From positions 38,737-102,736 of IMG/VR virus record IMGVR_UViG_3300037751_000591: DNA of 64,000 nt. One strand, given 5' to 3'. The notes below the pieces were generated by a model. That model ran no database searches. It was given only the letters and a program-made list of their open reading frames with translations, and was not told the origin of the DNA. The stretch comes from a virus. Lineage: Duplodnaviria; Caudoviricetes. The position numbers and the translations under genes are program-made. Positions 1 through 19,352 of the stretch are shown here, piece after piece; positions within the stretch are counted from its first letter, which is position 1; each line of letters starts with the position of its first letter.

Positions 1-3000
1 GGCTCGAATCTCCCTGAACACTGGATCGAAGATGCGGGGCAGTATGGCTACATCTTCGAGATCGATCCGCAGGCGTTTACCGACATCCAACCCGACGAAG
101 ACGTGATTGGCGAACACATCCATAAAGAAACGTTCCCGTGGCTGAATCGACTTGCGCGGCAGCATTTGAGCAGCCGTATGCTGGCGGATGCCCAATTCGG
201 CGAGTATGACGCTTGGGCCGAGGCCGGCAAGAAGTTGGTTGGCTACATGACGCCCGAGCAGAAATACGAGATCATCCTGAGCGGCAGCCATGTTTCCGCG
301 CTTGGCGAGCTACCCATTATTGCCGCGTGGCGTGTCGATAAAACGCAGGCCAGCCAGTACGAGAGATATACCTACGCTGAGGAAGACACCGAAGAAGATC
401 GGCGGCGGCGCATCGACCTGATCTGGCAGCTATCGCAGCCAGTCGAGCGGAGTCTGATTGGCAGGCACTTCGGTCCGGGCGCACACTCCGGCACCGGCAC
501 CGATCAGGACGTGCATGCCGGCGACGGCGAGGGCGGGATTTCCAAAGCAGACGCCACGGGCATTTGGGGCCTTGGCCTCGACAACAGAAGCCTGCACACG
601 GTTGCCTTCAAGCCGGCGGACAGCGGCGATGATGTCCAGCACTACCGCGAAGTTTCCATCACGCATCACCCCTCGCGCAAGCAACCTTATCGAGCAGTCA
701 TGGCCTTCGGGCATACGGCGCGGTTTGTGGATGGCCGGCACTGGTTTGACACACTGGCCGAAGCGAAGCAGGCCGGCGATGCCTATGTCGGCGACTGGTC
801 GGGGAGACCCGTCGAGCGCCACTACGGTCCGGGGCCGCACCCCGGCACGGGCACCGGTCAGGAGATACATGCCGGCGAGAGTGAGGGTTCCTATGGTCCG
901 CCGATCCCCGACGTGGCGACCGACGAACAGGTTGCTGGTTACAACCCTGTCGACATCAACAACTTCCGCATTGTGGGCGTCACCGATCTGTCCGACGCCA
1001 AGGGTCGCCTGATCGGGCCGGGAGAGTATGCGGATGCGGTCAGCCGCGTCATGCAGGATTTCTACCGACGCACCGGCTTCAAGATGTCGCGGCACGTGAT
1101 TTCCAATGAATGGATCGCGCTAGCCGAGGCCGGCGGCGGAACGTTCGCCGGCATGGTTTTGCCGTCCGAGCAGCTTGCCGACAAGCTGCAGGACACGTAT
1201 GAGGATCAGCTTTACGGTGCATACATTCAGGCCGAAAACACCCTGTTTATCAGTCCTAACACCCGACTCATGCGGCCCGACCAGCAGCGGTTCAGCTTTG
1301 TGATTGCCCATGAGTTGGGGCACTGGCTGCATCATCGGGTTGACCTGAGCGGATTGGAACCTAGCGAAGAATACTTTGGCGCGATGAGCGACACCTACGG
1401 TATGGGCAGGTCGCTCGAAGAAGAATACATCGCCGATCTGATTGCTGCCCACGTGCTCGACGGCGAGGTTTACCGCTTCCATCGCGAGCAAATGAACCGT
1501 CCGCTGACCGACTTCGAGCGGTCGGACGCCGAGGAAGTGATTTCCATTCTCAAGAAGGCCCCCGTGCTGCGGAGTCGGACCATGACCAAGCGAGCCGAAG
1601 ATCGCGTGCTGGTCTACTTCCCACAGACCGGCGAAGTGCTTGACGTGCCACGCGACCGGCTGAGCGAATTGCCCGAAACCGCCGAAATCTTCGGCGACCG
1701 CCTGCGTGGGGCCATGAGCGAGCGAGCCATGGGGTTCGGTATCAGCGACCCCTTCATGAGCACCGACCCCAACATGCCGCTCGACCCCGGCGGGCTTGGC
1801 GTCGAGTTCCATGAGCCGGTCCAGTTCGACCCGAAGACGGCAGACCCCGCCTACATCTACGCGTCGCTTTCGATGAGTCCTCCGCTGCTGGACTTGCAGA
1901 AGTACGTGCTTGATTACCTTGACAGCGCCGGCGCAGCCTATGATGCCCAAGAGCCTGAGCGCTTCCATATCACGCTGCTCTACATCGAGAAGATCGACAA
2001 CTGGCAGTTGCAGGACCTGATCTCTCACATTCAGTTCCCCGCCGCTTTCACGGTCGAGGGCGTCCGCCTTGGCACGTTCAAGGAAGCAGACGACAAGCCG
2101 CTGGTGCTGATGATCGACCCCGACAATGCCCTGCTGCGCATTCAGCGCGAGCTTTACGAGCGAGCGGTGCAGATGGGGTTGAAAGTATCCGAGTACAGCC
2201 GGCCCGGACACTACAAGCCGCATGTCACGCTGGCCTATGACATGGAGCCGGCAGATCAGCGCATGCCTAAGCTCGACAAGCCGATTCAGATCACGGTCGA
2301 TTCGGTGGCGATAACGCGGCCCGATTACCGGCTGGCCCGTGTGGTGCGGCTGCCAACCGTGCCGGGCGGAGCCGCCTTTGTCATTCGGCGTTTTGAGCCG
2401 GATATGTTCGACCGCATGCGCCAGCAGCGGGACAGCGTGATTTCGAGGGCGTTCAGTGATATGCGTCGCTACCTTACCGATTTGGTCGGCTCGATCACCG
2501 GGCGTCAGGCCGACAACGAGGAAGAGGTCGCACGCCGGCCGATCGGCGAGTTACGGCTGCCCAATTTGCCCCCTGTTCAGGCGGGCGACTACGTTTCGCT
2601 GGCCTATCTGCCCCTGACAATGGCGTGGCCGCACTTTGGCGAAGGCGCGTTTGATGAAATGCGCAAGATCGCCGACGCCACCAAGCGTCACTACGGGCCG
2701 AGCGCGCATCCCGGCACTGGCACCGAGCAAGAAGTCCATGCCGGTGAAGATTACGCAAGTGAAGATGACATATCTGAGTGGAAGGCAGAGCAAAAACAAC
2801 TGGTCGAGTATGCCCAAGAAAACTGGCGTGTTGTTGACAGTGTTCATCAGGCAGGGCGTGGGTACAAGATCGTAAGTCTATGGCTTGATCCCGACGGGGT
2901 TCTTTATGATCCCGGCATGACACATTGGGAATCGGCCATCGATGCCTACGAGGGCGCTGGTCTATGGGACGCAGACAGGGCGCGAGACGCGCGCCAGCGC

Positions 3001-6000
3001 CTTGAACTTCACGGTCAGAAGGAATTGGTCGAAATGGGGTTTGTCCGGGTTTCGGCCAGAGGGGACCGGAGCTGGCTTGTTTTTCAAATGATGGAGCCAT
3101 CAGAACTGACTCGCGATCAGCGCGAAGTTCTTGCTGTCGAATCGCAGCTTGTGTTCGACAGACGAGGCGAGGTATTCGCTGAGCCGAGTTCGCGAGCATT
3201 GGGGTTGCCTGATCGTTATGAGTCCGAAGAAGTCAAGGACATGCTTGGCCTTCGGTCGATTATCAAGCGTCACTATGGCCCCGGACCCCATCCCGGCACT
3301 GGCACCGATCAAGACATTCATGCGGGCGTAGGCGCTGCCCTGTCCGATCCGGTCGAGGCCCTCAGCGAAGCGCTGGTCGAAGACGCTATGCAAGTTCGCC
3401 GTGCCGAGGATGTAACCGCTGGCGATATCGGGCGGGGGTGGCTGCTGCCCGATGGACGTTTCGCCGATAGCAAAGGATCGCATGACAATTCTGCCGGCGA
3501 AGCACTGAATGCAGTCGGGGTCGAGCGCATCAATCATCCCTATTTCCGCTTCCCGCACGCGGAAAGCACGCTCATCAAGATGGGCTTTATTCGCATGGGC
3601 TTTAGTAGCTCAGTCGCATGGTTTGGCACCATGACAGACTTTACGCCAGATCAAGCAGAGTTCGTGGCGCGCTTGCTTGACCTCAGACCATTCAAACAGG
3701 TTTCCGTTGATTGGTATTCCCAAGAAGACGCAAGCCTACTTGAAGCCGTCGGTGATGAAAGACTGGCGCGCGCTCAATTGGAAAGAGAGATTGCGCGAGC
3801 TTATCGGACCATTAACCGCACGTGGGTTCCGGCAATTTACCGCGGTGGTCCGGGTAGCGGGCACTTTGAGCATGAGGGCAGGCTAGGCGAAATAGGCGGA
3901 TCGCTGCCCGCCGACGGCGTAGGGGGAGCGCAAGCGAGCGATGCTGTAGAGGGAGCGGGCACGAAGCAGGCTCATACTGGCGCTATCGCCAGTGATGCGG
4001 CAGCCGCGGCTGCCGGCCAGCCCTTGTCGGAGATTGAACCGCTCGGCGAGCGCCCGTTCGATCTTGTGCTGCAGTCGGTTGGCGTTGCCGCTGACGCCGA
4101 GCCTGACCGCTATTGGACGGAAATGCTAGAGCACCAGACTGCGATTGAAATGCAGCTTACTCAGTTGGAGGGCGAAGATCGGCGGGCCGCTATTTCGGTT
4201 AGTCAGCAGCTACACAAGAAGCTAACGATGGACTCATTGGCGCTTGTCGAGCGCGATGAACTTTGGCGGCAACCGCGAGATGAGTTTGTAGACGCCGGCA
4301 GGCCGGAGTTGATTAGCGGTGCAACACCGGAGGGCAGCGCAATTCTTGAACTTGTCGGAGCGCGCCGGCAGGCATGGCAACTGGCTGTGAATCGGGCAAT
4401 TCAGCGCGGCGATCTCGAAATCGACGAAGACGGGAACATCCCGGATTTGGGATACTACAACTCGGGCGGGGGGAAGTGGGTGCCGCTCGAGGGTGATCTT
4501 TACCACGTGACGACGGCGATCAGCGCAGTGCGAGAAACCGGACTGAGATCGAGATTCGAGCTTGCCATGCAGCGGGGCGTTGGGCTTGGCGGCGGCGACG
4601 ATCAAACCATCAGCTTCACGCAAGACCCCGGAGTTGCTCGCGGCATCGAGCGCGGCCTGCATGAGGCGCGGCTTGTGGCGCGTGACGACATAACATCCGA
4701 CGATCTCATGACCATGGCAGCCGAAGGCACAGGCGCTGAGCGACCGTTCATTGACGATCTGATGTTGTTCTATTCGAGTGATTGGAAAGAAGGTGATTGG
4801 GCTGCTGGCCGCGAATTGCCACAGGGGTTGCGCAGCGTACTCGAGGGCACTGAGTATGGGCGCAGTGCGATGGGCCAGACGCTGGAAGATTGGCAGACCA
4901 CCAAGGGCGATGAATGGGAAGTGGCCGAAGCCGGCCGCAGTTGGGAGGGCGGCGACGGTCGGACTTACCACACGCAATTTGTCAGGCCGGCGACCGAAGA
5001 GGAACAGCTACATGGTCGCTTCGAGCTTTACAAGCGATTCTCGGCATATCGTGAGTACGCCGGCGGCTACCTTGACCCGCTGTTTTTCAGTTCCGATCCG
5101 GCGGCACTGGCCGAGATTGATCCGGCGGAGATCGCGACTGTTCGCTACTCGCCGCAATCCAACAGTCGCGGCTCGCGGCAGGGAGCGCTCGGCGAGATCA
5201 GAACCTATGGCACCGACGGTTTGCAGCTAAGTGGTGAGGAAAGCTACTTCGACATCGAGAACGGCCAGATCGTTGAGCGCCATTATGGGCCGGGCACGCA
5301 CCCCGGAACCGGAACCGAGCAAGAGGCTCACGCCGGCGACGGCGGCGGCGCGGCAACCGATGTAGCCGAGCGGCCAAGCGGCGCAACAGGATCGGAGAAG
5401 CAGTCCGGTGTCGGCGGGGGGATTGGCGATTTTCTAAGGAAGTCCGACGAGAATGGCGGACGCACCCACTCGGCAACACACGTAGAGACAGCGAATGCGT
5501 TGGAGCTATTCGGCAGGGCAGCCGAGCAGTTGGGAGCAGCCGTTGACAACCGGGCGTCTGCCGACGCCGGAGAAATGGGCGGCCTGCCTCGAGAGATCGC
5601 CGAGCATATTGACAACCTGCTCAACGAGGGAAGATTCAGTGTTATAGAAAACACCGATATGGTCAGGGATATCTTGACCGGCCTAGAAGTCTACGAGTTT
5701 GAAATGGATAGGCACAAGCTAGCGCCGTCCATGACAGAACTCATTGAGCTGCAGACGCTGCGCGGTATGCTCGGCAGCTATACAGCGCCGGGATTCGATC
5801 CAGACAAGGAAGGTCTCAGCGACTTGTCTGTTGAAATGGGCGAGTACGTCCTGTCGCGTGGATTACAGATTACCGACGATCCCGGCAAACTGGCCCTTTA
5901 CGAGCAGCCTTGGTTCCAACGGCAGGTCACGCAGATCGCCGACAGCTTTGGCCTAGAAGACACGAGGATCATGGCACCATGGGCGACTGGCCTTGAAGGC

Positions 6001-8040
6001 GACCACGTTGTGCCCGACATCATGAACAGCATTGCCAGCAATAGCGATCTTAGGAACAGCAATGATTTCCACCCCGAGGCCAAGACGTATTACTTCGATG
6101 TTTTCCGGCACTTGGCTAATATGCCCGGAACGCCAGAGGCCGCGTACATGATTGACAGGAGCGGGTCTGACTGGCGTTTCCAGATTGATAGCGAGATTAT
6201 GGCGATGGGGCCGGGCCAGTGGCTTCCGCCGGACGAGTCCAAGTTTGGTGAAGGCGCTGAGATCGTGGCCGATTACGTCAATACGGCGTGGACTGAGTCC
6301 GCTCGCCATCCGGCATCAGTGGCGCTTATGGAAGAGGTAAGCCGGCAGTATGGCGGAACGCCCGCGCCAGAATCTGATCCAGATGGTGATTTCGTATCGG
6401 AGTGGGGCGAGGAGTTCAGCGAAGAACCAAGGAACATGCCGGGAAATTCGAGCGAAATCCTCTCCGGCTATGTCACGCGCACCTACGACGCCACGCAGCA
6501 ATGGCTGGCGGAGCGCGACTATCGGCCCGGCGATACGGTTCGTCTTTTTCGCGGGCTGCGGACCTTGACGGGCGAATGGAATCCGTCCGGCGAGGGCGGC
6601 GATACAACGGTGGATATGTGGTCGGTTTCCTCTTGGACATCCGACTTGGATACGGCAAGGTCGTTCGCCGAGCATGAACCATTTTCATATGACGACGATG
6701 TAGAGGACCTACCCGGCGCGATTGTGGCCGCCGACATCCCCATAGAGCGCTTGTTCGCCAACAGCGATACGGGCATGCCGTCGAAAGGCGAGTACGAATG
6801 GCTGGTGCTTGGCAAGGACGGCGTTGAGGGCACGGTCTATTCGACGGAAGATAGTCTCAACGATGCGATCATGTGGGGAGCGGCGTGGAACGCGGACCTC
6901 ACGGAGGTTGCTCAGAGACAGAATGACCATAAGCGTTGGTCTTGGGATGAGCACCAGCGCCGGGCCGAGAACACCGCTGCTGTCAAGCGGGCCGGCGGTG
7001 CTCGCAGCATGCACATCGACGAGCTTGCCGGTGACTGGTTGAAGGTGCTTGCCTACGAACTGGCGCGCGCCGCCGAAGCCAACGAAATGAACGCCTCCAG
7101 TCCCATTGAGGTCAAGGGCATGCTGCGGCGAGTAGTCAGGCATTATGGTCCGGGGACGCACCCCGGCACGGGCACTGAGCAAGATATTCACGCGGGCGGC
7201 GGGCGCGGCCGCGGGCGAGCGAGCAGTGCCCGCGCTGTGCGCATGGCGCAAGAGCCTGTCCGCAACTACACCTTCGCCGAAAACGACGAGTACATCAATC
7301 ACGCACAGCAGGTCTACGACCGGCAGCCGCCGGAAATCAAGGCGCAAATTGACGAAGTGCGGCAGCGCATCAAGGAAGGCCAGACCACGCAATCGATCTA
7401 TAAAGACCCCGAGACCGGCGAATACAGCCCCGACCGCCAGACGCTGCATGAGCAGATTATTGAGCAGATGCTGGCTGGCCGGACGCCTGAAGAACAACCG
7501 AGCGTGCTCATGACCGGCGGCTATCCGGGTTCGGGCAAAGGCACTATTTTCCGCCACTTGCAGCAGCAGGGCGAGACCCTCGAGAATTACGTCTGGATTG
7601 ATTCCGACGCGATCAAGGAGCAGCTTCCCGAGTACGAGGGATGGAACGCAGCCCTGACTCATCAAGAAGCATCCGATATCGTGGAAGAAATTGTAAATCG
7701 CGCCGCATCGCAGCGGCTGAGCATCGTCTACGACGCGACGATGCGCAACCAGTCTGAGTCCGACGCGATCCTGCGCCTGTTTGAGGATCAAGGATACAGC
7801 AGTCGCATCGTGTTTGTGGACGTGCCCATCGATGTCGCCATGGATCGGGCCATCACGCGCTTTGCCGGCGGCACCGGCCGGTTCGTGGACTTGAACTACA
7901 TTGCTACTCACGACGGCAAGAACGTAGCCAGCCTCGAAGCGTTGAAGGAAACCGTTGACCAGTGGGAGCATTGGGACAACAACGTACCCTTCGGCCAAGA
8001 GCCGATCCTGATTGGCAGCGGTCAAAAGGAAGAGGAATAG
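1..8040 (+). CDS. Giant polyvalent effector polyprotein (5'-truncated): zincin, 2H phosphoesterase, 2x WxxPDG domain, 2x ADP-ribosyltransferase-like, zeta-toxin kinase, separated by repeated tags
   Basis: Frame 1 is open from base 1, so the listed 103 start is probably not the true start. Motifs: HELGH (~1309), HITL (~1966) and HVTL (2221), LYHVTT...SFT...GEIR (4498-5208), RLFRG...SSWT...EYEWL (6538-6810), GGYPGSGKG/DSDAIKEQLP (~7516-7630). Seven tag copies lie between domains. Confidence 0.85.
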   Translation, partial: GSNLPEHWIEDAGQYGYIFEIDPQAFTDIQPDEDVIGEHIHKETFPWLNRLARQHLSSRMLADAQFGEYDAWAEAGKKLVGYMTPEQKYEIILSGSHVSALGELPIIAAWRVDKTQASQYERYTYAEEDTEEDRRRRIDLIWQLSQPVERSLIGRHFGPGAHSGTGTDQDVHAGDGEGGISKADATGIWGLGLDNRSLHTVAFKPADSGDDVQHYREVSITHHPSRKQPYRAVMAFGHTARFVDGRHWFDTLAEAKQAGDAYVGDWSGRPVERHYGPGPHPGTGTGQEIHAGESEGSYGPPIPDVATDEQVAGYNPVDINNFRIVGVTDLSDAKGRLIGPGEYADAVSRVMQDFYRRTGFKMSRHVISNEWIALAEAGGGTFAGMVLPSEQLADKLQDTYEDQLYGAYIQAENTLFISPNTRLMRPDQQRFSFVIAHELGHWLHHRVDLSGLEPSEEYFGAMSDTYGMGRSLEEEYIADLIAAHVLDGEVYRFHREQMNRPLTDFERSDAEEVISILKKAPVLRSRTMTKRAEDRVLVYFPQTGEVLDVPRDRLSELPETAEIFGDRLRGAMSERAMGFGISDPFMSTDPNMPLDPGGLGVEFHEPVQFDPKTADPAYIYASLSMSPPLLDLQKYVLDYLDSAGAAYDAQEPERFHITLLYIEKIDNWQLQDLISHIQFPAAFTVEGVRLGTFKEADDKPLVLMIDPDNALLRIQRELYERAVQMGLKVSEYSRPGHYKPHVTLAYDMEPADQRMPKLDKPIQITVDSVAITRPDYRLARVVRLPTVPGGAAFVIRRFEPDMFDRMRQQRDSVISRAFSDMRRYLTDLVGSITGRQADNEEEVARRPIGELRLPNLPPVQAGDYVSLAYLPLTMAWPHFGEGAFDEMRKIADATKRHYGPSAHPGTGTEQEVHAGEDYASEDDISEWKAEQKQLVEYAQENWRVVDSVHQAGRGYKIVSLWLDPDGVLYDPGMTHWESAIDAYEGAGLWDADRARDARQRLELHGQKELVEMGFVRVSARGDRSWLVFQMMEPSELTRDQREVLAVESQLVFDRRGEVFAEPSSRALGLPDRYESEEVKDMLGLRSIIKRHYGPGPHPGTGTDQDIHAGVGAALSDPVEALSEALVEDAMQVRRAEDVTAGDIGRGWLLPDGRFADSKGSHDNSAGEALNAVGVERINHPYFRFPHAESTLIKMGFIRMGFSSSVAWFGTMTDFTPDQAEFVARLLDLRPFKQVSVDWYSQEDASLLEAVGDERLARAQLEREIARAYRTINRTWVPAIYRGGPGSGHFEHEGRLGEIGGSLPADGVGGAQASDAVEGAGTKQAHTGAIASDAAAAAAGQPLSEIEPLGERPFDLVLQSVGVAADAEPDRYWTEMLEHQTAIEMQLTQLEGEDRRAAISVSQQLHKKLTMDSLALVERDELWRQPRDEFVDAGRPELISGATPEGSAILELVGARRQAWQLAVNRAIQRGDLEIDEDGNIPDLGYYNSGGGKWVPLEGDLYHVTTAISAVRETGLRSRFELAMQRGVGLGGGDDQTISFTQDPGVARGIERGLHEARLVARDDITSDDLMTMAAEGTGAERPFIDDLMLFYSSDWKEGDWAAGRELPQGLRSVLEGTEYGRSAMGQTLEDWQTTKGDEWEVAEAGRSWEGGDGRTYHTQFVRPATEEEQLHGRFELYKRFSAYREYAGGYLDPLFFSSDPAALAEIDPAEIATVRYSPQSNSRGSRQGALGEIRTYGTDGLQLSGEESYFDIENGQIVERHYGPGTHPGTGTEQEAHAGDGGGAATDVAERPSGATGSEKQSGVGGGIGDFLRKSDENGGRTHSATHVETANALELFGRAAEQLGAAVDNRASADAGEMGGLPREIAEHIDNLLNEGRFSVIENTDMVRDILTGLEVYEFEMDRHKLAPSMTELIELQTLRGMLGSYTAPGFDPDKEGLSDLSVEMGEYVLSRGLQITDDPGKLALYEQPWFQRQVTQIADSFGLEDTRIMAPWATGLEGDHVVPDIMNSIASNSDLRNSNDFHPEAKTYYFDVFRHLANMPGTPEAAYMIDRSGSDWRFQIDSEIMAMGPGQWLPPDESKFGEGAEIVADYVNTAWTESARHPASVALMEEVSRQYGGTPAPESDPDGDFVSEWGEEFSEEPRNMPGNSSEILSGYVTRTYDATQQWLAERDYRPGDTVRLFRGLRTLTGEWNPSGEGGDTTVDMWSVSSWTSDLDTARSFAEHEPFSYDDDVEDLPGAIVAADIPIERLFANSDTGMPSKGEYEWLVLGKDGVEGTVYSTEDSLNDAIMWGAAWNADLTEVAQRQNDHKRWSWDEHQRRAENTAAVKRAGGARSMHIDELAGDWLKVLAYELARAAEANEMNASSPIEVKGMLRRVVRHYGPGTHPGTGTEQDIHAGGGRGRGRASSARAVRMAQEPVRNYTFAENDEYINHAQQVYDRQPPEIKAQIDEVRQRIKEGQTTQSIYKDPETGEYSPDRQTLHEQIIEQMLAGRTPEEQPSVLMTGGYPGSGKGTIFRHLQQQGETLENYVWIDSDAIKEQLPEYEGWNAALTHQEASDIVEEIVNRAASQRLSIVYDATMRNQSESDAILRLFEDQGYSSRIVFVDVPIDVAMDRAITRFAGGTGRFVDLNYIATHDGKNVASLEALKETVDQWEHWDNNVPFGQEPILIGSGQKEEE

Positions 8041-8288
8041 ATATGCCCGATGTCGAGATCGTAGACGGCGGCGACGAATATTTGGATGAGGCTGTAATCC
8101 GCGGCATCAAGCGGGCCATCGAGAATAAGGCTGCCGACGACCGCGCCATGCTGCCCGAGCCAGCGCCAGCTAGCGATGAAGACGTGGAAGTGACCGGCAA
8201 GCTGCGGCGCGTGAAGGTCGGCGTTGCGCGTCATTACGGTCCGGGGTCGCATCCCGGCACGGGCACCGATCAAGATGTGCATGCCGGC
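463..8288 (+). repeat. Dispersed coding repeat, tag A: R-H[YF]GP[GS]xH[PS]GTGTxQ[DE]xHAG (7 copies)
   Basis: 60-nt copies start (Arg codon) at 463, 817, 2686, 3268, 5278, 7138 and 8229. Conserved at peptide level with synonymous variation. Confidence 0.95.
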
Positions 8289-8912
8289 GAGGGGGCCGGC
8301 GGCAAAGGCAGCGACCGCAAGACTCGGGTCGGCATCACGTCGGCCAGACCGGGCCGGCCAAGCGAGCAGGTCTATGAAGACATGCGCGGCTTTGAAGGCC
8401 GGCTGCGCCAGATTGAGAGTGTGCGCGGGGTGAGCGTCAAGCCCGGCATTGGCGGATGGCAGGGCGGAGAAGAACCGACATGGGTTGTGGAGTACGAGGG
8501 CAACGGCGAGGCCTTGCGCCTGATGGCCGAGACCGGCAAGCAGTTCAATCAGGACGCCGTGCTCATCATGACGCCGCCGGGCGATCAGGGCGGCCAGCCT
8601 GTCGTGGACTGGCACTTCGGCGAGGCGATCAGCGAGGGCGAGCGCGACGCTATTCAGGACCTGCTTGTTGAGTCCGGCATTGGCGGCTGGACATGGTATC
8701 GTGACGCCAACAGCCAGAGCGTGCTGAGGGCCGTTTCGGTCCCGCAGTGGGGAGGCTCAGCCGGCGCACACCTTAAGTCCGCCGACCTTGTGAGCGACCT
8801 GTTCTCACAGGCGGGTCTGACGTACACCCGCAGCGACGGCTCAGTTGGCATCGAGATTTTGGAGAGGGAAGGCGAGTTCAGCTATGACCGAGTCCTCGAA
8901 GCAGCCGAGTGA
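8043..8912 (+). CDS. Tag-A effector protein; SAM-lyase (T3 SAMase-like)-resembling domain
   Basis: ATG 8043 follows a purine-rich RBS. Tag A at 8229. GGWQGGEEPT...GKQFNQDAVL resembles the phage SAM lyase pattern. Confidence 0.55.
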   Translation: MPDVEIVDGGDEYLDEAVIRGIKRAIENKAADDRAMLPEPAPASDEDVEVTGKLRRVKVGVARHYGPGSHPGTGTDQDVHAGEGAGGKGSDRKTRVGITSARPGRPSEQVYEDMRGFEGRLRQIESVRGVSVKPGIGGWQGGEEPTWVVEYEGNGEALRLMAETGKQFNQDAVLIMTPPGDQGGQPVVDWHFGEAISEGERDAIQDLLVESGIGGWTWYRDANSQSVLRAVSVPQWGGSAGAHLKSADLVSDLFSQAGLTYTRSDGSVGIEILEREGEFSYDRVLEAAE

Positions 8913-9075
8913 CGCACTGGCCCGCTTGAAGGCGGCCAGAGACAACAGGGAAGACGGGGCCGACGGCTGGATTGGCGATCTGCCCGAACTTCCCGAGCTT
9001 CCCGCTGGCGAGAAAAAGGTTGCCGTCATGATCCCGAAGCGTGACCGGAGCGGAAGTGACGATTCAGACAGTTGA
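8884..9075 (+). CDS. Small hypothetical protein (possible partner or inhibitor of the upstream effector)
   Basis: 63-aa ORF that overlaps both neighbours and fills the gap between them. Confidence 0.45.
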   Translation: MTESSKQPSDALARLKAARDNREDGADGWIGDLPELPELPAGEKKVAVMIPKRDRSGSDDSDS

Positions 9076-11314
9076 GGTTGGCGGTCGACTGCGGCGCGTC
9101 GGCGTCGCAAGAGGCGGCGAGGGTTCTGGCCATCATGGCCATCGCGGGCGTCCGGGCGAGGTTGGGGGGTCTGCGCCTTCGAGCGAGACCGTCATTGAAG
9201 TCGGCGATGTGGGAGAAGCGCCGGGCAGCCGCGTGGCAGATAAGCAGGCTGCTCGAAGTGCTGTAAGGGAACTCCGCGAGCGAGGCACAATCAGCCCTCT
9301 CGATCCCCGCGACATCGTGTTTGGCGTACGGCACGATGATGACGAAACATCAGTTGTTGTTGTGAACGTCAGCGAGTGGCAGGGGACCATGCACCTAGAG
9401 TCGATCATGGTCCCGACGGACGAACAGGGAAGAGGGGCGGCGTCGTTCATTCTTGACGAGATTCTCATTCCGACCGCCGATAAGTACGGCGTGGAGATCA
9501 CCGCCATTGCAGAGCCAATCGGCGAGTCGGGCCTGCCGAAGAAGGCGCTCATTCGATGGTATCTGCGGCACGGTTTTGAGCTAGTGGACACGCCGGGCGG
9601 CGACGATATCATTTATCGGCCCCAAGGGGCCGCCGTTGCGAGAGGCGGTCCGGGGTCAGGCCACTTTGGGCACGAAGGCCGGATTGGTGAGGTTGGGGGC
9701 AGCCAACCATCCGGCGGCGATACACTTGCTGTCGCGCCCCCATCCGATTACCGCAGCCGAGACTGGCGTGCTGTGGCCGACGGATTTCAGCGCACGGCCA
9801 GCCGGCTCTCGCCATTTGAAATGACCAAGGCCAACTTCACGGGGTTCTGGCTATCGCCAGACGGCGAGATTTACCGGGTGCAGGGCATGAGGCACAACGA
9901 GGTCGCCGAGGAAGCTATCGAGGCGGCCCGCGACCAGTTGAGTCCGTCTGTTCTCGAATATTACCAAGAGCTAAAGCAGAGCTTCCTCACTGACTCGCCG
10001 GCCCTCGACGTGACCTTGGAGCTAGGGTTCATTCGGGGCTGGATGTCGGCGGCAAATGGCCCGAAAGAGATTTCCATTACCATCGACGAAGCGGCGACCG
10101 ACCTGCGCCGAGCACAGAAACAGACGCTGCTCGACATCTTCTCAGTGGCCCCTGACCGCGAATATGACTTTGTGTGGGCCGTCTATCCGACGGGCGGCAG
10201 TCACATGCCGATTGAGAGCGGCAGAGACCGCGACGAGTTCATGGCCCGGTTCGGCATGATCCAGCGCCAGTTCACACCACCGCAGCCGGACATGATCGCT
10301 CGCGCACTGGCCGGCTTCAACAATGCGCTCAGCGTTGTTGAAGCGATGCTTACACGTGGTGGTCCGGGCAGTGGGCACCGCGGCCACAAAGGACGGCCGG
10401 GCAAGGTGGGGGGGTCGCAGCCGTCAGGAGGGGGAGCGCCGACCGAGGGCGACAGGCTTGACGATGAGCGCAGGCGTGCCGTCGACATGTTCAGGGCAGG
10501 CAAGGGAACGCCAGAAGGCTTGGCTCTGCTGCTGGACGACTTAGAATGGAACGGCTCGCCTGAGCATGTGGAAATAGCGGCACAACGGGCCGGCATTCCC
10601 TTTTGGGACATATACCGATTTGTTGAGGCCCTCAGGACTACGAGAATGTCGTATGTTGCTATGCAACTGAACCTTTACGCCGAGGGTATGCCCGAGTTCG
10701 CTGACATCATGAGCACGCAGGCCGACTTTGTGGATGAGCCTCTCAATGGTCAGTTCCGCAGAGCGGATATTCCTTGGGGAATGCCCGACCGCGATCCGGC
10801 CCTTGTCGAGCGCCTGAATGAGATCGAGGCCGAGATCGGCGAACTCGACTATGAAGTGGCATACGTTCTGACCCCCGGCGGCGACGTGATACTGCACAAG
10901 GAAGGCACGGTCGACGAGGTTAGATTTTCGGAAGAAGAGATCGCGTTGATGGAAGGCGCTGTCATGATCCACAACCATCCATCGAACTCGGCCTTTTCCG
11001 ACGACGACATAAACATTGCCGTTGATGCCGGCGCTTTAGAAACGATAGTTGTTGGCCGAGGCGGGAAGCGCTATATCATGGGGCTTGGCGGATACGTCGG
11101 CGACGTGGACCGGGAAGTAGTCCGGCGTCAGGCCATTGGCTATTATCACTCAGCCGACTTCCCGGTTCGGCAGGTGTTTGGCCCGCTGGTCGAGCAACAC
11201 CGCCTTTCCCCCGTGCACGCCAGCTTTTATCATGGTATTGAGCAGTGGTTGCGGGTCGAGCGCGAAATGCCAGACCACATCGATTTCGTTTATCAAAACA
11301 AGGATATGAAGTGA
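9056..11314 (+). CDS. Tag-B polyprotein: GNAT acetyltransferase, WxxPDG domain, JAB/MPN domain
   Basis: GTG 9056 follows GGAG. Three tag-B copies. LESIMVPTDEQGRGAAS...LIRWYLRHGF (GNAT); FWLSPDG...H...GFIR; E...IHNHPSNSAFSDDD (JAB). Confidence 0.8.
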   Translation: MTIQTVEVGGRLRRVGVARGGEGSGHHGHRGRPGEVGGSAPSSETVIEVGDVGEAPGSRVADKQAARSAVRELRERGTISPLDPRDIVFGVRHDDDETSVVVVNVSEWQGTMHLESIMVPTDEQGRGAASFILDEILIPTADKYGVEITAIAEPIGESGLPKKALIRWYLRHGFELVDTPGGDDIIYRPQGAAVARGGPGSGHFGHEGRIGEVGGSQPSGGDTLAVAPPSDYRSRDWRAVADGFQRTASRLSPFEMTKANFTGFWLSPDGEIYRVQGMRHNEVAEEAIEAARDQLSPSVLEYYQELKQSFLTDSPALDVTLELGFIRGWMSAANGPKEISITIDEAATDLRRAQKQTLLDIFSVAPDREYDFVWAVYPTGGSHMPIESGRDRDEFMARFGMIQRQFTPPQPDMIARALAGFNNALSVVEAMLTRGGPGSGHRGHKGRPGKVGGSQPSGGGAPTEGDRLDDERRRAVDMFRAGKGTPEGLALLLDDLEWNGSPEHVEIAAQRAGIPFWDIYRFVEALRTTRMSYVAMQLNLYAEGMPEFADIMSTQADFVDEPLNGQFRRADIPWGMPDRDPALVERLNEIEAEIGELDYEVAYVLTPGGDVILHKEGTVDEVRFSEEEIALMEGAVMIHNHPSNSAFSDDDINIAVDAGALETIVVGRGGKRYIMGLGGYVGDVDREVVRRQAIGYYHSADFPVRQVFGPLVEQHRLSPVHASFYHGIEQWLRVEREMPDHIDFVYQNKDMK

Positions 11315-12342
11315 GCTACGTCATTGATCGAGCGGTCAGTCGGGGGGCCTACTACGTGGCCGGCGAAGGCTACCGCCGGACCGAGCTTACATGGGAGCAG
11401 TTCGACAGCCTCTTGGCTGGCGAATCTATCGTGGTTGACGGCCAGACCATTGATCCTAGCGACCCGTTCAACCCCGTGCTGCCCTATGAGGACTACCCTA
11501 TCGACAGCAGCGATCCGTTGCAGAGATTGACGGAGCGTGGCGGGCCGGGGTCAGGGCATCGTGGGCACAAGGGCAGGCCCGGACAGGTCGGGGGGTCGCA
11601 ACCTAGCGTCGGCAGCGCCGCCGGCGAGGCAGAGGCCGACGCAGGATTTGAGCGCCACGGCACGACCAAAGAGGTCTATCAAGAGCTACTTGATCGAGCG
11701 CGTGCAATGAACAACGAAGGTCGATTTGCCCATGTTGGCCGCGACATCAAAACGGGCGAATACCTGCTGTTTACCGAGCGCGAATCGGCGGTCGAGCATC
11801 AGGGCAACAACATTCGCCACATTGGTTATGAGCAGTTCTATGCTTTCACGCCCATCGAAATGATGTTTCACAAGAGCGGGGACCAAAGCAACGTCACCTT
11901 TGATGGCGATGAAATGAGCGATCTAAAAGCCTTCGGAACAATGTCAGAAGAAGACTACGACGATCACATGATTGTCATTCACAATCATCCCGAAAGAGTG
12001 GGCGAGTTTATGCCGCCGTCGCCGAGCGACCTTCGGGCCAGCGCCCTCATGTACGCTGCCGAGTCGCGTGTCTACACCGGCGATGGGACCTACACGCTGC
12101 GCTTGGGGCAACTAGGGAATCGGGCAGCGTCGCAGATAATGAAAGCGTTTTGGATTTTCGACGAGACCAACTTTTCAGATCGATTTCCCGAGCTAACAGG
12201 CCACGGCGGGGAAGCACAAGAGGATTATGTCATAGCAAACAGCCTTGGCGACGAATTGAAAGAGTACCAGCTAGAACGACTCGCTTATGTGGCCGAACGA
12301 TTGCCGTGGGTGTCCATTGAGTTTGAGCCAATCGATGAGTGA
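11311..12342 (+). CDS. Tag-B effector with JAB/MPN domain
   Basis: GTG overlaps the upstream stop. Tag at 11536. IHNHP...PSPSDL. Confidence 0.75.
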   Translation: MSYVIDRAVSRGAYYVAGEGYRRTELTWEQFDSLLAGESIVVDGQTIDPSDPFNPVLPYEDYPIDSSDPLQRLTERGGPGSGHRGHKGRPGQVGGSQPSVGSAAGEAEADAGFERHGTTKEVYQELLDRARAMNNEGRFAHVGRDIKTGEYLLFTERESAVEHQGNNIRHIGYEQFYAFTPIEMMFHKSGDQSNVTFDGDEMSDLKAFGTMSEEDYDDHMIVIHNHPERVGEFMPPSPSDLRASALMYAAESRVYTGDGTYTLRLGQLGNRAASQIMKAFWIFDETNFSDRFPELTGHGGEAQEDYVIANSLGDELKEYQLERLAYVAERLPWVSIEFEPIDE

Positions 12343-13255
12343 AACTTTCATACTCGACGAAGATATGTTGCGCGTTACTCCCGCCGGGCCGGTTCCCGAT
12401 TTGAGCGGGGAGCCAGTCGAGCGCGGCGGTCCCGGCAGTGGCCATCATGGCCATAAGGGTAGGCCCGGATCGGTCGGAGGTTCGCTGCCGCGGATGGGCA
12501 ATCCCATTCCCGAGAAACCGGGGTTCAACTACGGCGGCGCATGGGACCTGATTGAATCGTTGCCGAAGACAGAGCGGTGGGACATCATTCGCGAGGCGTA
12601 CGAGGTCACGGACTCGGTTCACTTCGCGCCTGTGCCTGACGGCGTTGATCCGCTGCCTTGGCGCGAAACTAGGGCGCTGTCGAAGGGCGGGTCATTTCGA
12701 TGGGGGGTGTTTGGCCCGCTGGATATTGCATTCAATTTGCAGACCGGCGGGGAGCACTATGGCAATTATCCGATGCTGAATGCCGTCCATGAATACGGGC
12801 ACTTCATGGATATGCTGCTTGGGACAAGCCAAGACCCGACCGGCTATTTTCGTTACCTGTTCGGATCGAAAACAGCGCTGACTGCGGCAGGCTTGCGCGA
12901 CCCCCTGATTGTCAGTGCCTACCAAGAACTATTCTCCGTGGCACGCGCTTCGGATGGCGTACAACAACTTGCGCAATACGACAATTGGCGCTGGACCGAT
13001 TCGCGGGGCTACCAGCATGAAACGAATCAAGCCAGTGCGCTTAAATGGTTGTCCACGGTCGAAATCTTTGCCAGAAGCTATACCCAATGGGTTGCCGAAC
13101 GGTCAGGCAACGAGCGCTTGCAAGGTCAGGTGCGCGGCTGGCGCGAGGCTTGGCGCGACGGCGGCGGTCCCGATCTGCAATGGGATACTGACGACTTCCA
13201 GCCGATAGGCGAGGCCATGGACAACCTGTTCAAAGTGGCAGGGCTTCTCAAATGA
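12335..13255 (+). CDS. Tag-B effector, zincin/LPD1-like domain
   Basis: Tag at 12422. HEYGHFMD, EIFARSYTQWV and C-terminal IGEAMDNLF resemble large-polyvalent-protein domain 1. Confidence 0.7.
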   Translation: MSETFILDEDMLRVTPAGPVPDLSGEPVERGGPGSGHHGHKGRPGSVGGSLPRMGNPIPEKPGFNYGGAWDLIESLPKTERWDIIREAYEVTDSVHFAPVPDGVDPLPWRETRALSKGGSFRWGVFGPLDIAFNLQTGGEHYGNYPMLNAVHEYGHFMDMLLGTSQDPTGYFRYLFGSKTALTAAGLRDPLIVSAYQELFSVARASDGVQQLAQYDNWRWTDSRGYQHETNQASALKWLSTVEIFARSYTQWVAERSGNERLQGQVRGWREAWRDGGGPDLQWDTDDFQPIGEAMDNLFKVAGLLK

Positions 13256-14424
13256 CTCTCTACCCGCTAACCGACGACCTGATTTTCGTTGATGGCGACA
13301 ACGAGTTTGAATACATCGGGCCGTCCATCATGGTCGAGCGCGGCGGTCCGGGGTCGGGGCATCATGGGCATGAAGGCAGGCCGGGCGAGGTTGGCGGCAG
13401 CCGGCCGAGCGGCAAGCGTGGCGCGCAGTTCAGCGAGACTCCGGCGCTGGCAGTCGAAACCTACCTGCGGCGCGTCGTTACAAGCCGGCCGCAGTTTTCC
13501 ATTCGGGTCATTGGCGATGAACCGCAGCCGATTGATGTCAGCACGTTCGCTGACGCCGTGCGCGCATGGGATGCTGATGGCCGCCGCGGCCATATCGAAG
13601 TTGTTGACCCTGAGCGCGCCTTTTGGGCCAGCTTCGGCTTTCAGGAGAGCCTTGACGTCGACGCCGTAGAAGATTGGGACGCCGAATTTCAGATGTTTGT
13701 GGACGTTCACGACTACATGCTGCAAGCGCTGAACGATCCAGAGTTTGCGAATCTGACGGCCCAAATCGACCGCCGCGGTAGCTACATGGTAGAAGCCGCC
13801 GAACGCGCCCTTGCCCGTTGGAACGAGGCTCGCGCTCGAGGCGAGGAAATCGGACGTTTTGACGGGCCGGCAGGCTACAACATTATTTTCACCAATGACC
13901 GCGACTATGTTGGGGCCGGATCGAACAACGTGGGGCAGCTTGGCGGCAGGGTGTTCTGGCAGCCGCTGAGCATTGCGGAAGAGGATGCCGCGCTCGGCGA
14001 GGCCTCGTTCAACTTTGGCCTATCGCCGGCATATGTCCAGTTCCATGAAATGCACCACGGGTTCGGGTCGGACACCGAGCTTGATCGCTTTTCCGACCTC
14101 ATCAGCCTAGACTTCTACATGAGGCGCTACGAGGATTTGCCGGGTTACATGCAGGCGGCGGTTGTGGACAAGGCATTCCAAACGTACTATTGGGGAACCG
14201 GTCGCCTGAGCGGCAGATGGCGCGAGACGCGGCTTGCATCCCGTAGAGCAAGCGCTTGGCTTTACAACCGCTATCCCGAGTTCTATGGTCAGGCCATCGA
14301 AGAACGGCGGGCCTATGTCGCCGACGACTCTGGCGACGTTCCTTACTCTTACTGGCTGGATGATCCAGACACCAGCGGCGGCCGGCTGCGGCGTTGGTCG
14401 AGAGAGTACCGGGCGAAACCATGA
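13252..14424 (+). CDS. Tag-B effector, putative HExxH metallopeptidase
   Basis: Tag at 13339. FHEMHHG motif. Confidence 0.65.
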   Translation: MTLYPLTDDLIFVDGDNEFEYIGPSIMVERGGPGSGHHGHEGRPGEVGGSRPSGKRGAQFSETPALAVETYLRRVVTSRPQFSIRVIGDEPQPIDVSTFADAVRAWDADGRRGHIEVVDPERAFWASFGFQESLDVDAVEDWDAEFQMFVDVHDYMLQALNDPEFANLTAQIDRRGSYMVEAAERALARWNEARARGEEIGRFDGPAGYNIIFTNDRDYVGAGSNNVGQLGGRVFWQPLSIAEEDAALGEASFNFGLSPAYVQFHEMHHGFGSDTELDRFSDLISLDFYMRRYEDLPGYMQAAVVDKAFQTYYWGTGRLSGRWRETRLASRRASAWLYNRYPEFYGQAIEERRAYVADDSGDVPYSYWLDDPDTSGGRLRRWSREYRAKP

Positions 14425-14633
14425 CAGAGCTAATTGAGTCCTCGACCGACAGGCGAATCCCGGTCGAGTTGGTGACGACAGAGCAGACAGCGGCCTTCGC
14501 CTCGGCCTTCAACGCCCTGATCCTGCGTGGCCTTGCGGAAGACGACGCCCTCGAAGAGGCCTTCGCGGCGGCCATCACCCCCGAGCAGCGGGCCGCTGCC
14601 ATGGGCGAAGACTCCCTCTACATCCCCGAATAA
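14421..14633 (+). CDS. Small hypothetical protein
   Basis: ATGA overlap with the upstream stop; 70 aa. Confidence 0.55.
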   Translation: MTELIESSTDRRIPVELVTTEQTAAFASAFNALILRGLAEDDALEEAFAAAITPEQRAAAMGEDSLYIPE

Positions 14634-14708: not shown

Positions 14709-16220
14709 ATGCCTGCTGCCGCGACTGCTGAGCTTGTCCAGCGCCCGAAGGACGTGAAGGCCCCTGATACGCTGTCGGGCCACGCAGCCGATATCTGGCG
14801 CAGCGCTTTTCTGAGCGCATACAGCGACACCTGCAAGAACCGCGATGATCGTGACGCCTGTGCTGCGAAGATCGCATGGTCGGCGGTCAAGCAGAGCTAT
14901 CGCAAGAACAAGGAAGGCCAATGGGTTGAGAGGGCTGCCGACCCGAACGTTGCGGCGGTTGATACTGGCGCTGTGGACGGCGGTGCGTTTGCAACGCCGG
15001 TCGAACCCGACCGACCGATCATCCCGACGCCGCAGAATCTGACACGGGGAGAAGCAGAGGTTTGGAACCGTGTCTATCTCGAAGCAGTCAAGGGCGCATG
15101 TGCGCAGCAGGATAATCCGCAGGCATGCGCAGCGCGAGAGGCTTGGGAGGCGGTCAAGGCATTCGGCGAAGAAGCCGAGCTAGATGACGAGATCACCGCC
15201 GAGCCGGAAGATGAAGAGGAACCGACCGAAGATGAAGAGGCGGATGCCGAGGATGAAGCCGCCGAGGGCGAACCGGCAGACGATGAAGAGGCGGTAGACG
15301 ACGAAGAAGTGGGCGACGCGAAAGAATCAGCCGAGGCGGACACTGGTGAGGAAGAAGCCCCGGCGGACGCAGAGGAAGAGGAAGCAGAGGCGGAGCCAGC
15401 CGAGGAAGAAGAACCGGCTGACGAAGAAGCTGAATCCGAGGAAGACGAGGAAGAGGAAGACGAAAAGGATCAGCGCCGCCGCGTCCGCAAATCACTGTCA
15501 GAGCGCAGTGACGGTCTGACAGGCAAGGGAGGCACCATGGCCCCGAAGGAACAGGTCTACACCGAACGCCAGATGCAGGCGCTGATCGCCGCCGGCCGCG
15601 CCATGCCGGATGGCCGTCTGCCGATTGTTTCCAAGGCAGACGTTTCGGCAGCCGTTGAGTCGTTCGCCAAGGCCAACGCAGCCGATCCCGCTGTCATTCG
15701 ACACATCATCGTTCGCGCCGGCTCGCTCGGCGCGCTTGAACTGCTGCCGGATACGTGGATCAATCGCGGCACGGCAACCATGATTTCCAAGGTTGACGAG
15801 CAGTGGTTGAAGGCGGCTGTGACCCGCATCGCCGAGACCCTCGATGACCTGCAATGGCTGAGCGGCATCGGCGAAGACACGACCATCACGCGCCCGACGG
15901 ATATTCCTTCGACGGTGTGGCGCACGCTGCCGGCCATCGAGCGCAGCGCTCGGGCCGAATACCTGCGCACCTTTGTGCGCCGGATGTACGAGCAGGCCGT
16001 TGACGACATGCGCGTTGCGGGATGGCGGGCTGAGCCGATGGTTGGCCGCCCCCATGAGTTTCAGTTCAAGAAGTTCGTGGAAACTGGCGAAGGCCCGCTG
16101 CTTGTGCGCGCCATTCTTGTGCGCAAGGCCGGCACGAAGGTTTGGCTGCCGCGCGAGATCAGCCGCGGCGCATCGCTTTCGACAGCGGTCATGATGCTGC
16201 CGGATGAGTTGCGCCCGTGA
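14709..16220 (+). CDS. Head-associated protein: 2x ChaB-like domain, acidic linker, DUF6582-like domain
   Basis: HAADIWRSAFLSAY...AAKIAWSAVKQSYRK (ChaB) plus a second similar repeat. AMPDGRLPI...RHIIVRAGSLGA..LLPDTW. GGAGG RBS. Confidence 0.7.
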   Translation: MPAAATAELVQRPKDVKAPDTLSGHAADIWRSAFLSAYSDTCKNRDDRDACAAKIAWSAVKQSYRKNKEGQWVERAADPNVAAVDTGAVDGGAFATPVEPDRPIIPTPQNLTRGEAEVWNRVYLEAVKGACAQQDNPQACAAREAWEAVKAFGEEAELDDEITAEPEDEEEPTEDEEADAEDEAAEGEPADDEEAVDDEEVGDAKESAEADTGEEEAPADAEEEEAEAEPAEEEEPADEEAESEEDEEEEDEKDQRRRVRKSLSERSDGLTGKGGTMAPKEQVYTERQMQALIAAGRAMPDGRLPIVSKADVSAAVESFAKANAADPAVIRHIIVRAGSLGALELLPDTWINRGTATMISKVDEQWLKAAVTRIAETLDDLQWLSGIGEDTTITRPTDIPSTVWRTLPAIERSARAEYLRTFVRRMYEQAVDDMRVAGWRAEPMVGRPHEFQFKKFVETGEGPLLVRAILVRKAGTKVWLPREISRGASLSTAVMMLPDELRP

Positions 16221-18152: not shown

Positions 18153-19352
18153 ATGGAAAACGTGATGGTTCCCGACCTGTTGGTTGGCGAGCGCGTTCTT
18201 GACCTCGGCGAGGGCGGCGGCAACGGAGCGTTCGTTGGGCGTGCTACTGACCCCAACATCCTTCCGCAGCCGTATGCGACCCCCGGCGACTTCGCTGCGC
18301 AGTATCCAACTCCGCTGGACACGACCGAGATCATCGCCATGTGCGAGGAAGTCACGCTGTTTCAGGCCCTGCCTGAGGAAAACACAGCGCTCAAGCAGCA
18401 CACTTGGCGAGAACTGAATGAACTCGCGTTCGTGTCAGGCTCATCGTACATTTCCTTCGCTGACGGCGAGTGCCCCGAAGAATACTCGCACGACGGCGAC
18501 AACACCACGGTTACGCTCAAGAACATCGGCGCGAAGAAGTCACTGAGCCTGAGCGACATCATGCACTCGCAGGCCGTGGCTGCCGCCAATTGGAATGGGA
18601 TCAACCGACTCGTCGGTGGTGTCCCCTCGGGTGAAGGCATGCCCGGTGGCACCGATATGGCGACGTTCCAAATGGAGCAAGTCGCTGATGTCAAGGAAAA
18701 GGAAATCCGGTTGTCAATGACGCTGGTCCTGAACGGTTGGGATCGGCTGCTGGTTGAGGGTGACGCCAACGCGAACTCGCTTGAGTTCACGGGTGTCGAG
18801 CAGTGGGATGACAACCTCGAAGGTTGCGACTTCCACGCGAACGATAACTCGGCCTCGGGCACGTTCTCGGCGGCTGGCTTTGACCGGTTCCTCAGCGAGG
18901 GCTGTGCCAAGCCGACAGCCCTGTGGGGTCATCCGCAGGCCATTCAAGAACTGATGTCCGCCTACTTCCAACTTGGATTCCAAGGGTCGCAGGTGGTCAA
19001 CTTCGAGAGTGGCGACCGCATCACTCCGGGCTTCAACTTCGGTGGTTTCGTCAACACCGGTGTTGGCCGGCTGGCTGTGGTTGCGGACAACAACTTCAAC
19101 CGCGCGAACGCTGGCGGCGGGGCGTTTCAGGCGACGATCTATGGCATGCGCATGACGCACAACGGTGTGCCGCTGGTCTACAAGCTGACGCAAATCCCGC
19201 TGGCCCTGCGCGACCTTGTGCCCGGCTGTACGGCAATCAGCTTCGAGGTTTGGGCGAAGACTGCCCTCATCATCAAGCACTGTTGCGCACACGGCGCGTA
19301 CACCAGCCAGTTCACCGGTCGGATCGTGACGACCTGCCCTGTGATCGGGTAG
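18153..19352 (+). CDS. Major capsid protein
   Basis: 399 aa, follows the protease-scaffold gene, has an RBS and strong codon bias, and is followed by a terminator. EFTGV and ISFEVWAKTALIIK-type segments fit an HK97 fold. Confidence 0.75.
   Translation: MENVMVPDLLVGERVLDLGEGGGNGAFVGRATDPNILPQPYATPGDFAAQYPTPLDTTEIIAMCEEVTLFQALPEENTALKQHTWRELNELAFVSGSSYISFADGECPEEYSHDGDNTTVTLKNIGAKKSLSLSDIMHSQAVAAANWNGINRLVGGVPSGEGMPGGTDMATFQMEQVADVKEKEIRLSMTLVLNGWDRLLVEGDANANSLEFTGVEQWDDNLEGCDFHANDNSASGTFSAAGFDRFLSEGCAKPTALWGHPQAIQELMSAYFQLGFQGSQVVNFESGDRITPGFNFGGFVNTGVGRLAVVADNNFNRANAGGGAFQATIYGMRMTHNGVPLVYKLTQIPLALRDLVPGCTAISFEVWAKTALIIKHCCAHGAYTSQFTGRIVTTCPVIG

Follow-up and report, generated by a model that had tools for sequence, protein, structure and literature searches.

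The locus described here raises the question of why two short His/Gly-rich peptides, which we call tag A and tag B, recur at the head of one domain after another in an array of phage open reading frames (ORFs). The array lies in a 102,736-bp IMG/VR virus record (IMGVR_UViG_3300037751_000591, Caudoviricetes), of which the 3′ 64 kb (positions 38,737 to 102,736) form the window analyzed and supply the coordinates used below. Host defenses encounter the effectors that a phage delivers before any other protein, and to our knowledge the way in which effectors are selected for packaging has been worked out in T4 and a few of its relatives only. From sequence comparisons with other uncultured phages, we conclude that the locus likely encodes capsid-delivered polyvalent effectors organized by interchangeable N-terminal tags, with cleavage by the prohead protease after the Arg that precedes each tag.

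In the 102,736-bp record, when scanned in six frames with regular expressions, 15 tags were detected, namely seven copies of tag A (R↓H[YF]GPxxHxGTGTxQxxHAG) and eight of tag B (R↓GGxGSGHxxHxGRxGxxGGSxP, where the arrow marks the predicted cut), all on the plus strand and within a span of 13.7 kb. This agrees with the initial annotation, which had counted 14 copies (seven of each) over six ORFs of the window; the six ORFs are codirectional, and the additional tag B begins at −314, 314 nt upstream of the window and inside the same giant ORF1. Six copies of tag A are in ORF1, at 466–522 (copy 1, R↓HFGPGAHSGTGTDQDVHAG), 820–876, 2689–2745, 3271–3327, 5281–5337, and 7141–7197 (copy 6, which heads a Zeta-toxin module), and copy 7 is in ORF2 (8232–8288, residues 64–82). 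Within the window, tag B occurs once in ORF1 (3844–3909, R↓GGPGSGHFEHEGRLGEIGGSLP), three times in ORF3 (9113–9178, 9644–9709, and 10358–10423), and once each in ORF4 (11539–11604), ORF5 (12425–12490), and ORF6 (13342–13407). With six copies of tag A and two of tag B, ORF1 also bears out the claim that both types occur within one protein. An Arg precedes 15 of the 15 copies, whichever the tag type, and V, I, T, or L is found two residues before that Arg. When the pattern was reversed as a control, it gave no matches in 14 tag-bearing virus records.

The tag B copies share 81% peptide identity, compared with 39% identity at the third codon positions of identical residues. Because of this difference, the sequences indicate that the tags are not a DNA repeat: they are maintained by selection at the protein level, and recent DNA duplication is not their source. 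The corresponding third-position identity of the tag A copies is 55%, which suggests that tag A spread more recently.

Comparison across phages shows that the tags head domain-sized units, as had been claimed when each copy was placed on the N-terminal side of a distinct domain. Among 132 tag-bearing ORFs that have an in-frame upstream stop, the median distance from that stop to the first tag is 44.5 codons (no more than 100 codons in 76%), successive tags are spaced by a median of 220 aa (5–95% range, 148–429), and a median of 257 aa separates the last tag from the stop codon. The stretch of 20 residues that follows a tag is enriched in Pro (1.8-fold), Gly (1.5-fold), and Ser (1.4-fold). A location inside folded domains, which the initial annotation had listed as evidence against itself, was found neither in Pfam envelopes, none of which contains a tag among cases with reported coordinates, nor in an AlphaFold2 (AF2) model of ORF2. 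In that model, which was built from a 23-sequence alignment and has a mean predicted local distance difference test score (pLDDT) of 74.5, residues 40–91 (leader, tag A at 64–82, and linker) are predicted to have no secondary structure (pLDDT <50), and residues 94–289 are predicted to be folded (pLDDT 86–93). The count of about 14 separate effectors stands as an upper-level guess, with some inter-tag segments 480–620 aa long and probably containing several domains each.

The tags are also linked to head genes. In eight of the eight other tag contigs with a located protease, all tags are on the strand of the protease, and the main tag cluster ends 1–8 kb upstream of the protease gene; in other phages, Phage_Mu_F or Phage_portal_3 domains are fused to tag B ORFs. 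The linkage to head modules that the initial annotation had proposed to examine by profile search is therefore seen both in the position of the tags upstream of the protease and in their place beside portal and MuF domains. In two contigs with Lys before the tag (G019 and G016), tags are spread over two or three separate regions (for example, 33–57 kb and 70–72 kb). In another contig (L073, 2299–3766), two neighboring genes, located between TerL and portal, start with M-GG..., so that their tag B has no leader; each ATG is 9–10 nt past the previous stop codon and behind AGGAG or AAGGG, which resemble ribosome-binding sites. Because removal of Met from these leaderless proteins would create the same N terminus as proteolysis, the tag at a free N terminus is probably the functional state of the element.

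A degenerate DNA pattern found tag B in 93 IMG/VR stretches, often as 2–11 copies together. When a 36-column profile built from 140 copies was searched against 1.84 billion 50%-identity representative proteins, it matched 6,620 protein clusters at E ≤ 1e-3 (1,068 at ≤1e-10), with up to 9–10 copies per protein, and ten of the ten top matches that were looked up are metagenomic. By both pattern and profile, peptides like tag B recur in head-region proteins of other phages, as the initial annotation had stated. Among the matches listed from cellular genomes (species representatives), about three of the 73 in-frame matches, which came from 120 stretches, are true tags, and most of the other matches are out-of-frame chance occurrences in GC-rich DNA; among the matches listed, tag B is almost confined to viral contigs. 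The domains carried by tag B ORFs elsewhere include ART families, Zeta, 2H, GNAT, ChaB, TopoIB, LPD1, DUF2958, DUF2213, Phage_Mu_F, and Phage_portal_3. Sequence variants of tag B replace the first His by Asn or Phe, or GRPG by G[IV]PGH. A search of the tag profile against the PDB returned His-tag artifacts only and no chain with the tag, and a tblastn search of ORF6 and the tag consensus against cultured phages gave no match, although the low-complexity filter probably masks the tag. Neither the motif strings nor the concept of such tags was found in the literature searched, so the family is apparently widespread yet undescribed.

Tag A was found in only three other IMG/VR contigs, even with a relaxed pattern, and in close orthologs of ORF2. 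An alignment of 23 ORF2 homologs (orthologs of 8043–8909) shows that four motifs share one N-terminal position: tag A, tag B, [LI][RH]E[FY]NxxHxPAGxxxGG[RQ]F, and KW[DN]xxxHPR[DN]xxG[QE]F. The last two, which resemble tag A (an aromatic residue, N/G/D, two variable residues, and H-P), could greatly outnumber it. In an ortholog of the Zeta module (44% identical), a tag B variant takes the place of the tag A found in this phage. Because different motifs occupy the same position in the ORF2 and Zeta orthologs, the tags appear to be functionally equivalent cassettes.

The residue immediately before the tag (position −1) is near-invariant within a contig and differs between contigs. It is Arg in 16/16, 12/12, and 9/10 copies of three contigs, Leu in 8/8 and 6/6, Lys in 5/5, Glu in 4/4, and Met or Lys in one more; positions −2 and −5 are variable, and position −4 is L, V, or I in 118 of 216 tags. 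The −1 residue would thus behave as the P1 residue of a lineage-specific protease. Contigs in which the tag follows [LI]-x-E encode Peptidase_S77, the family of T4 gp21, in four of four cases, compared with none of the 19 other tag contigs, six of which are at least 90% complete. T4 gp21 cuts after [LI]-x-E, and the leaders in the S77 contigs (such as ...DVIAE↓GG) presumably resemble the T4 targeting sequence. The gp21 protease acts at a short motif and removes a 10-residue capsid targeting sequence (PMC9026906).

In contigs with Arg at −1, the closest relatives of this phage lack S77 (which was not searched for directly in this genome) and encode proteases related to its ORF8 at 60–68% identity; the contig with Met or Lys at −1 encodes a 37% identical relative. 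The major capsid proteins of these phages show a parallel change. In five R-type sequences the conserved body of the capsid protein starts after F-V-x-R↓A, and in the M/K-type contig, the tags of which read V-E-K↓GG, it starts after M-V-E-K↓T. This switch of the capsid N-terminal boundary from Arg to Lys in parallel with the −1 residue of the tags supports cleavage of the tags by the prohead protease.

A DUF2213 domain that weakly matches "head maturation protease" families in PHROGs is encoded by four L-type contigs, and a tag directly follows DUF2213 in the same ORF (...RAL↓GG or ...EIL↓GG). If DUF2213 is the protease of the L-type phages, the protease itself would be released at a tag. The arrangement of DUF2213, tag B, and a long scaffold-like tail is seen at L241:1255–3180, L244:1–2037 (minus strand), and L243:610–3354. 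The cleavage after Arg that the initial annotation had proposed has in this way gained comparative backing in silico, and we regard it as likely, as the −1 residue tracks both the protease type and the capsid N-terminal boundary.

The candidate protease of this phage is ORF8 (16217–18064, plus strand), in which a probable prohead protease region (nt 16469–17146) is followed by an Ala/Glu-rich, scaffold-like tail. Residues 85–310 of ORF8 resemble S78/S77 proteases by ESM-Atlas language-model features (0.95), and some of the clusters that share these features carry S78/S77. The alignment of ORF8 homologs contains invariant His and Ser columns, and the protease-like region leads into a scaffold-like tail. 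ORF8 is probably the prohead protease, an assignment that we offer as a lead and not as a demonstration. The neighboring ORF9 (18153–19352, plus strand), with its F-V-x-R↓A boundary at R30 (nt 18240–18242), is a probable SU10-type major capsid protein: its ESM-Atlas features score 0.98, 195 of 256 are shared with clusters that are 76–89% SU10_MCP, and it is the most conserved gene among the relatives (71–75% identity). ORF9 has no match to any hidden Markov model searched, including PF17236 (SU10 capsid).

Several observations weigh against cleavage of the tags by a prohead protease. The covariation is confounded by shared descent, as the E-, R-, and L-types probably represent three or four clades and hence few independent events. 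One complete L-type contig (G010) shows no DUF2213, and another contig has mixed −1 residues (Q, H, and S). The [VIT]-x-R sequence is frequent proteome-wide (14.5 per 1,000 aa), so the P-side alone cannot define a site; for the same reason, we rejected enrichment of [VI]ER or [VIT]xR in head proteins as evidence for sites. Where the protease domain ends, a candidate cut (L-E-E-R↓S) has neither V nor I at P3. ORF8 has no match in Pfam, PHROGs, or NCBIfam, searches of the relatives' contigs for S78 and S78_2 found nothing, the AF2 model of ORF8 is poor (pLDDT 45), and neither its profile against the PDB nor an hhalign comparison with S77 gave a signal. No cultured relative of the tag-bearing phages was found, all of them being uncultured, and the HExxH and JAB motifs within the cargo itself could mark the cutters. 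In addition, cleavage would account for the −1 residue but not for conservation of the tag among phages with differing capsid and protease proteins.

Taking these points together with the covariation, we assign a probability of roughly 0.6 to a model in which the head module contains an arsenal of polyvalent effectors that are cut before each tag by the prohead protease, with the tag acting at the free N terminus. Each bead on the string consists of a hydrophobic P4, V or I at P3, and Arg, then tag A or B, a Gly/Pro/Ser-rich linker, and an enzyme domain of 150–600 aa. We propose that the capsid takes up the effectors and that they enter the host along with the DNA; a polyvalent protein was detected by proteomics in phi24B virions (bioRxiv 10.64898/2026.04.10.717836). 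As the head matures, the resident prohead protease (probably ORF8) would cleave the bond between Arg and the first tag residue and thereby resolve ORF1 to ORF6 into up to 15 proteins with a free tag at the N terminus of each. As a portable, interchangeable module, the tag probably acts through its conserved His, Gly, and Arg residues at the mature N terminus, where it would serve either to keep the effector in the head or to let it out through the portal and tail. A self-cleaving mechanism (N–O acyl shift) was dropped because the tags have no folded context, and a double-glycine-leader mechanism was dropped because there is no C39 peptidase and tag A has no GG.

A conserved and interchangeable tag heads thousands of effector modules, and, if this model is correct, the −1 residue predicts the specificity of the resident prohead protease, which could be read from the genome alone. 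The model would also supply a sequence rule for virion cargo in uncultured phage genomes, and with it candidate anti-defense and toxin enzymes, and the tag would be a candidate general means of bringing foreign proteins into phage heads. The model of polyvalent proteins, in which processing is assigned to built-in metallopeptidases, would be revised.

The foremost alternative, which is the inference of the initial annotation in its strong form and which we consider possible but unlikely, is that the tag itself is a capsid-targeting signal that docks on the scaffold, the capsid interior, or the portal, with cleavage being secondary. Single-domain ORFs are still tagged near the N terminus, where resolution of a polyprotein alone would not need a tag, the leaderless M-GG... 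proteins have no other conserved element, and the thirteen near-invariant positions of the tag, kept across phages with different proteases, imply a specific partner. However, a capsid-specific partner is hard to picture when the same tag is used by phages with S77, ORF8-like, and DUF2213 proteins, the capsid and scaffold proteins of which presumably differ. The E-type leader, which we take to resemble the T4 targeting sequence, would be cut off, and strings fused to portal or MuF are already anchored but keep their tags.

If all tag phages share one partner, the candidates would be the DNA and the portal/tail channel, and metal binding by the two or three His residues of the tag is possible. 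More speculatively, tags A and B and the two additional motifs could form one family of universal cargo handles that prohead proteases of several families expose at a free N terminus and the packaged DNA or the portal/tail channel reads, the effectors being held in the capsid and then threaded into the host before or together with the genome; we regard this extension as doubtful. If it were true, a leader, a site, and a tag would suffice to load any protein into many phages for injection. The encapsulin cargo-loading peptide is a short, Gly-rich, portable peptide that sends unrelated enzymes into an HK97-fold shell. Unlike the tags, encapsulin peptides are of another sequence and usually C-terminal, with a known binding pocket.

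The T4 internal proteins and Alt, which are processed by gp21, are a close precedent for prohead-protease cleavage at the tags in that diverse effectors enter the head and a short N-terminal propeptide is removed, and the S77 tag phages have [LI]-x-E leaders that presumably resemble the T4 targeting sequence. The conserved element of T4 is, however, the 10-residue leader that is removed, and nothing conserved is left on the mature protein, whereas here the conserved part follows the cut. The tag also recurs internally in polyproteins and is common to phages with unrelated protease specificities; P1 is Arg in this phage, and S77 with [LI]-x-E is found only in a different group of tag phages. 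Many ejection and inner-body proteins of phiKZ and SPN3US are likewise matured at a short P-side motif (S/A-x-E) with removal of propeptides (PMC5694885, PMC7411985, and PMC10052503), but they lack a conserved P′-side tag and are not modular enzyme polyproteins.

A second alternative is that zincin (HExxH) or JAB peptidases borne by the cargo cut the string, in the head or after ejection, and that the tags are their sites. This would be in line with Iyer, Burroughs, Anand, de Souza, and Aravind (2017; PMC5512222), who proposed that polyvalent proteins are processed by built-in metallopeptidases. HExxH motifs are present in ORF1, ORF5, and ORF6 and JAB-type motifs in ORF3 and ORF4, and a peptidase that travels with its substrate would fit conservation of the tag across phages. 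These assignments are at the motif level in this phage, though, no MPTase-PolyVal match to Pfam was found among 107 tag-bearing ORFs or in this phage, and the −1 residue varies with the family of the prohead protease and with the capsid boundary rather than with the cargo, all of which make this explanation improbable.

The polyvalent proteins described there (PMC5512222) otherwise share much with the array, being multi-effector giants beside portal/MuF genes, with predicted processing and delivery with the DNA. Of their repertoire of Zeta, 2H, GNAT, ART, RadC/JAB, and zincin domains, Zeta and 2H pass the Pfam cut-offs in this phage, and GNAT, JAB, and zincin are seen weakly or at the motif level. 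ORF1 (2H and Zeta) and ORF3 (three modules) each carry at least two unrelated effector domains in one polypeptide, and the association with portal/MuF is seen in a portal-MuF fusion 1 kb upstream. By contrast, a term search of the paper (PMC5512222) found neither inter-domain tags nor the logic of prohead-protease sites, and in this phage the string is split over six ORFs and has no Pfam match to LPD or MPTase-PolyVal domains. LPD1 and ART-PolyVal do occur on tag-bearing ORFs of other phages.

We give slightly less credence still to a third alternative, in which no cleavage occurs and intact giant proteins flex at the tags, which would serve as hinges and perhaps bind metal or DNA. The tags are Gly-rich and fall in a low-confidence segment of the AF2 model, they have two or three conserved His residues, and their GRP core is reminiscent of AT-hooks. 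In phi24B, gp47 is discussed as a large virion protein (bioRxiv 10.64898/2026.04.10.717836). Hinges, however, have no need for a lineage-fixed −1 residue or a hydrophobic P4, and they would be unexpected 10–50 residues from the N terminus of single-domain proteins or directly after a start Met.

That the products are not virion cargo at all but late enzymes or toxins for the producer cell or for release at lysis, with a cytoplasmic purpose for the tags, is very improbable: MuF-linked toxins are discussed as polymorphic toxins of temperate phages in one study (PMC5576092), but the array lies between portal-MuF and the protease and capsid genes, other phages have portal or MuF fusions, and the logic of the cleavage sites fits head maturation. 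The MuF toxins of that study (PMC5576092) resemble the array in having MuF-linked, variable toxin domains in the head module. They differ in that there is one toxin per MuF, a term search of that paper found no tag or cleavage motif, and tag B is, among the matches listed, almost absent from cellular genomes and hence from prophages.

The payload of the array is toxin-like and probably anti-defense. ORF1 (1–8040, plus strand) is a polyvalent-type giant of ∼2,906 aa, the 5′ end of which is cut by the window, its ATG being 680 nt upstream. Its 2H phosphoesterase domain (2_5_RNA_ligase2/LigT, 1885–2319) passes the Pfam cut-offs for PF13563 (45 bits versus 27) and PF02834 (32.6 versus 23.3); the match of this region to Acb1 is weak (19.8 bits, below the cut-off of 27). 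The Zeta toxin/AAA_33 kinase domain (7483–7950) matches PF06414 at 95.2 bits (cut-off 22.3). Besides these two domains, ORF1 has at least five more tag-delimited segments. HELGH (1309–1323), the motif of a candidate zincin metallopeptidase, is in a segment of 623 aa.

ORF2 (289 aa, 8043–8912, plus strand, with its true start at ATG 8043) consists of a leader, tag A, and a tandem ferredoxin-like domain. It scores 21 bits against the phage S-adenosylmethionine (SAM) lyase family PF23780 (cut-off 28), and a Foldseek search with its model matched T3 SAM lyase (8bb1_E, E = 6.4e-4, TM score 0.47) among other ferredoxin-like structures; the domain may tentatively be called SAM lyase-like. The three tag-headed modules of ORF3 (757 aa, 9041–11314, plus strand) are a weak GNAT match, one without assignment, and a JAB/RadC-like module with HNHPx7SxxD at 10970–11008. 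ORF4 (11245–12342, plus strand, start uncertain) has one tag B and a JAB/RadC-type motif at 11980–12030, ORF5 (12287–13255, plus strand) has one tag B and HEYGH at 12788–12802, and in ORF6 (13252–14424, plus strand) tag B follows a leader of 30 aa, with HEMHH at 14044–14058. The three HExxH (ORF1, ORF5, and ORF6) and two HNHP...SxxD (ORF3 and ORF4) candidates are assigned at the motif level only.

The gene order around the array is TerL, portal-MuF fusion, a 261-aa ORF, ORF1 to ORF6, ORF7, the protease-like ORF8, and the capsid gene ORF9. The initial placement of the array directly upstream of the protease and capsid genes is essentially right, except that ORF7 intervenes and that the protease call for ORF8 comes from language-model features only. 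TerL (L102:11819–14386; genome positions 31819–34386, upstream of the window) has an intein between its ATPase and nuclease parts, with a LAGLIDADG/Hom_end homing-endonuclease domain at residues ∼295–366.

ORF7 (14709–16220, plus strand) combines two ChaB-like regions with a poly-acidic stretch and a C-terminal domain, and it carries no tag, whereas tag B is present on ChaB proteins of other phages. Its acidic stretch comprises ∼110 residues that are nearly all Asp, Glu, or Ala, and the jumbo phages PaBG, Lu11, and Xanthomonas PhiXhv match ORF7 at the DNA level only in this stretch. At the N terminus of ORF8 (16217–16470), a small Cys-rich module (CGDCHYF...GC...CDQF) precedes the protease-like domain, and residues 520–587 in its scaffold-like tail gave a weak match to cytochrome c in a sequence search of the PDB. 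Downstream of ORF9, ORF10 (19428–20753, plus strand) was rejected as the capsid protein, as it matches the virion structural protein family phrog_1645 and ORF9 is the probable major capsid protein instead. A virion structural protein that T4-like cyanophages (cyanomyoviruses) share with the podovirus HMO-2011 is 31–35% identical to ORF10, and this distribution is odd for a head-module gene.

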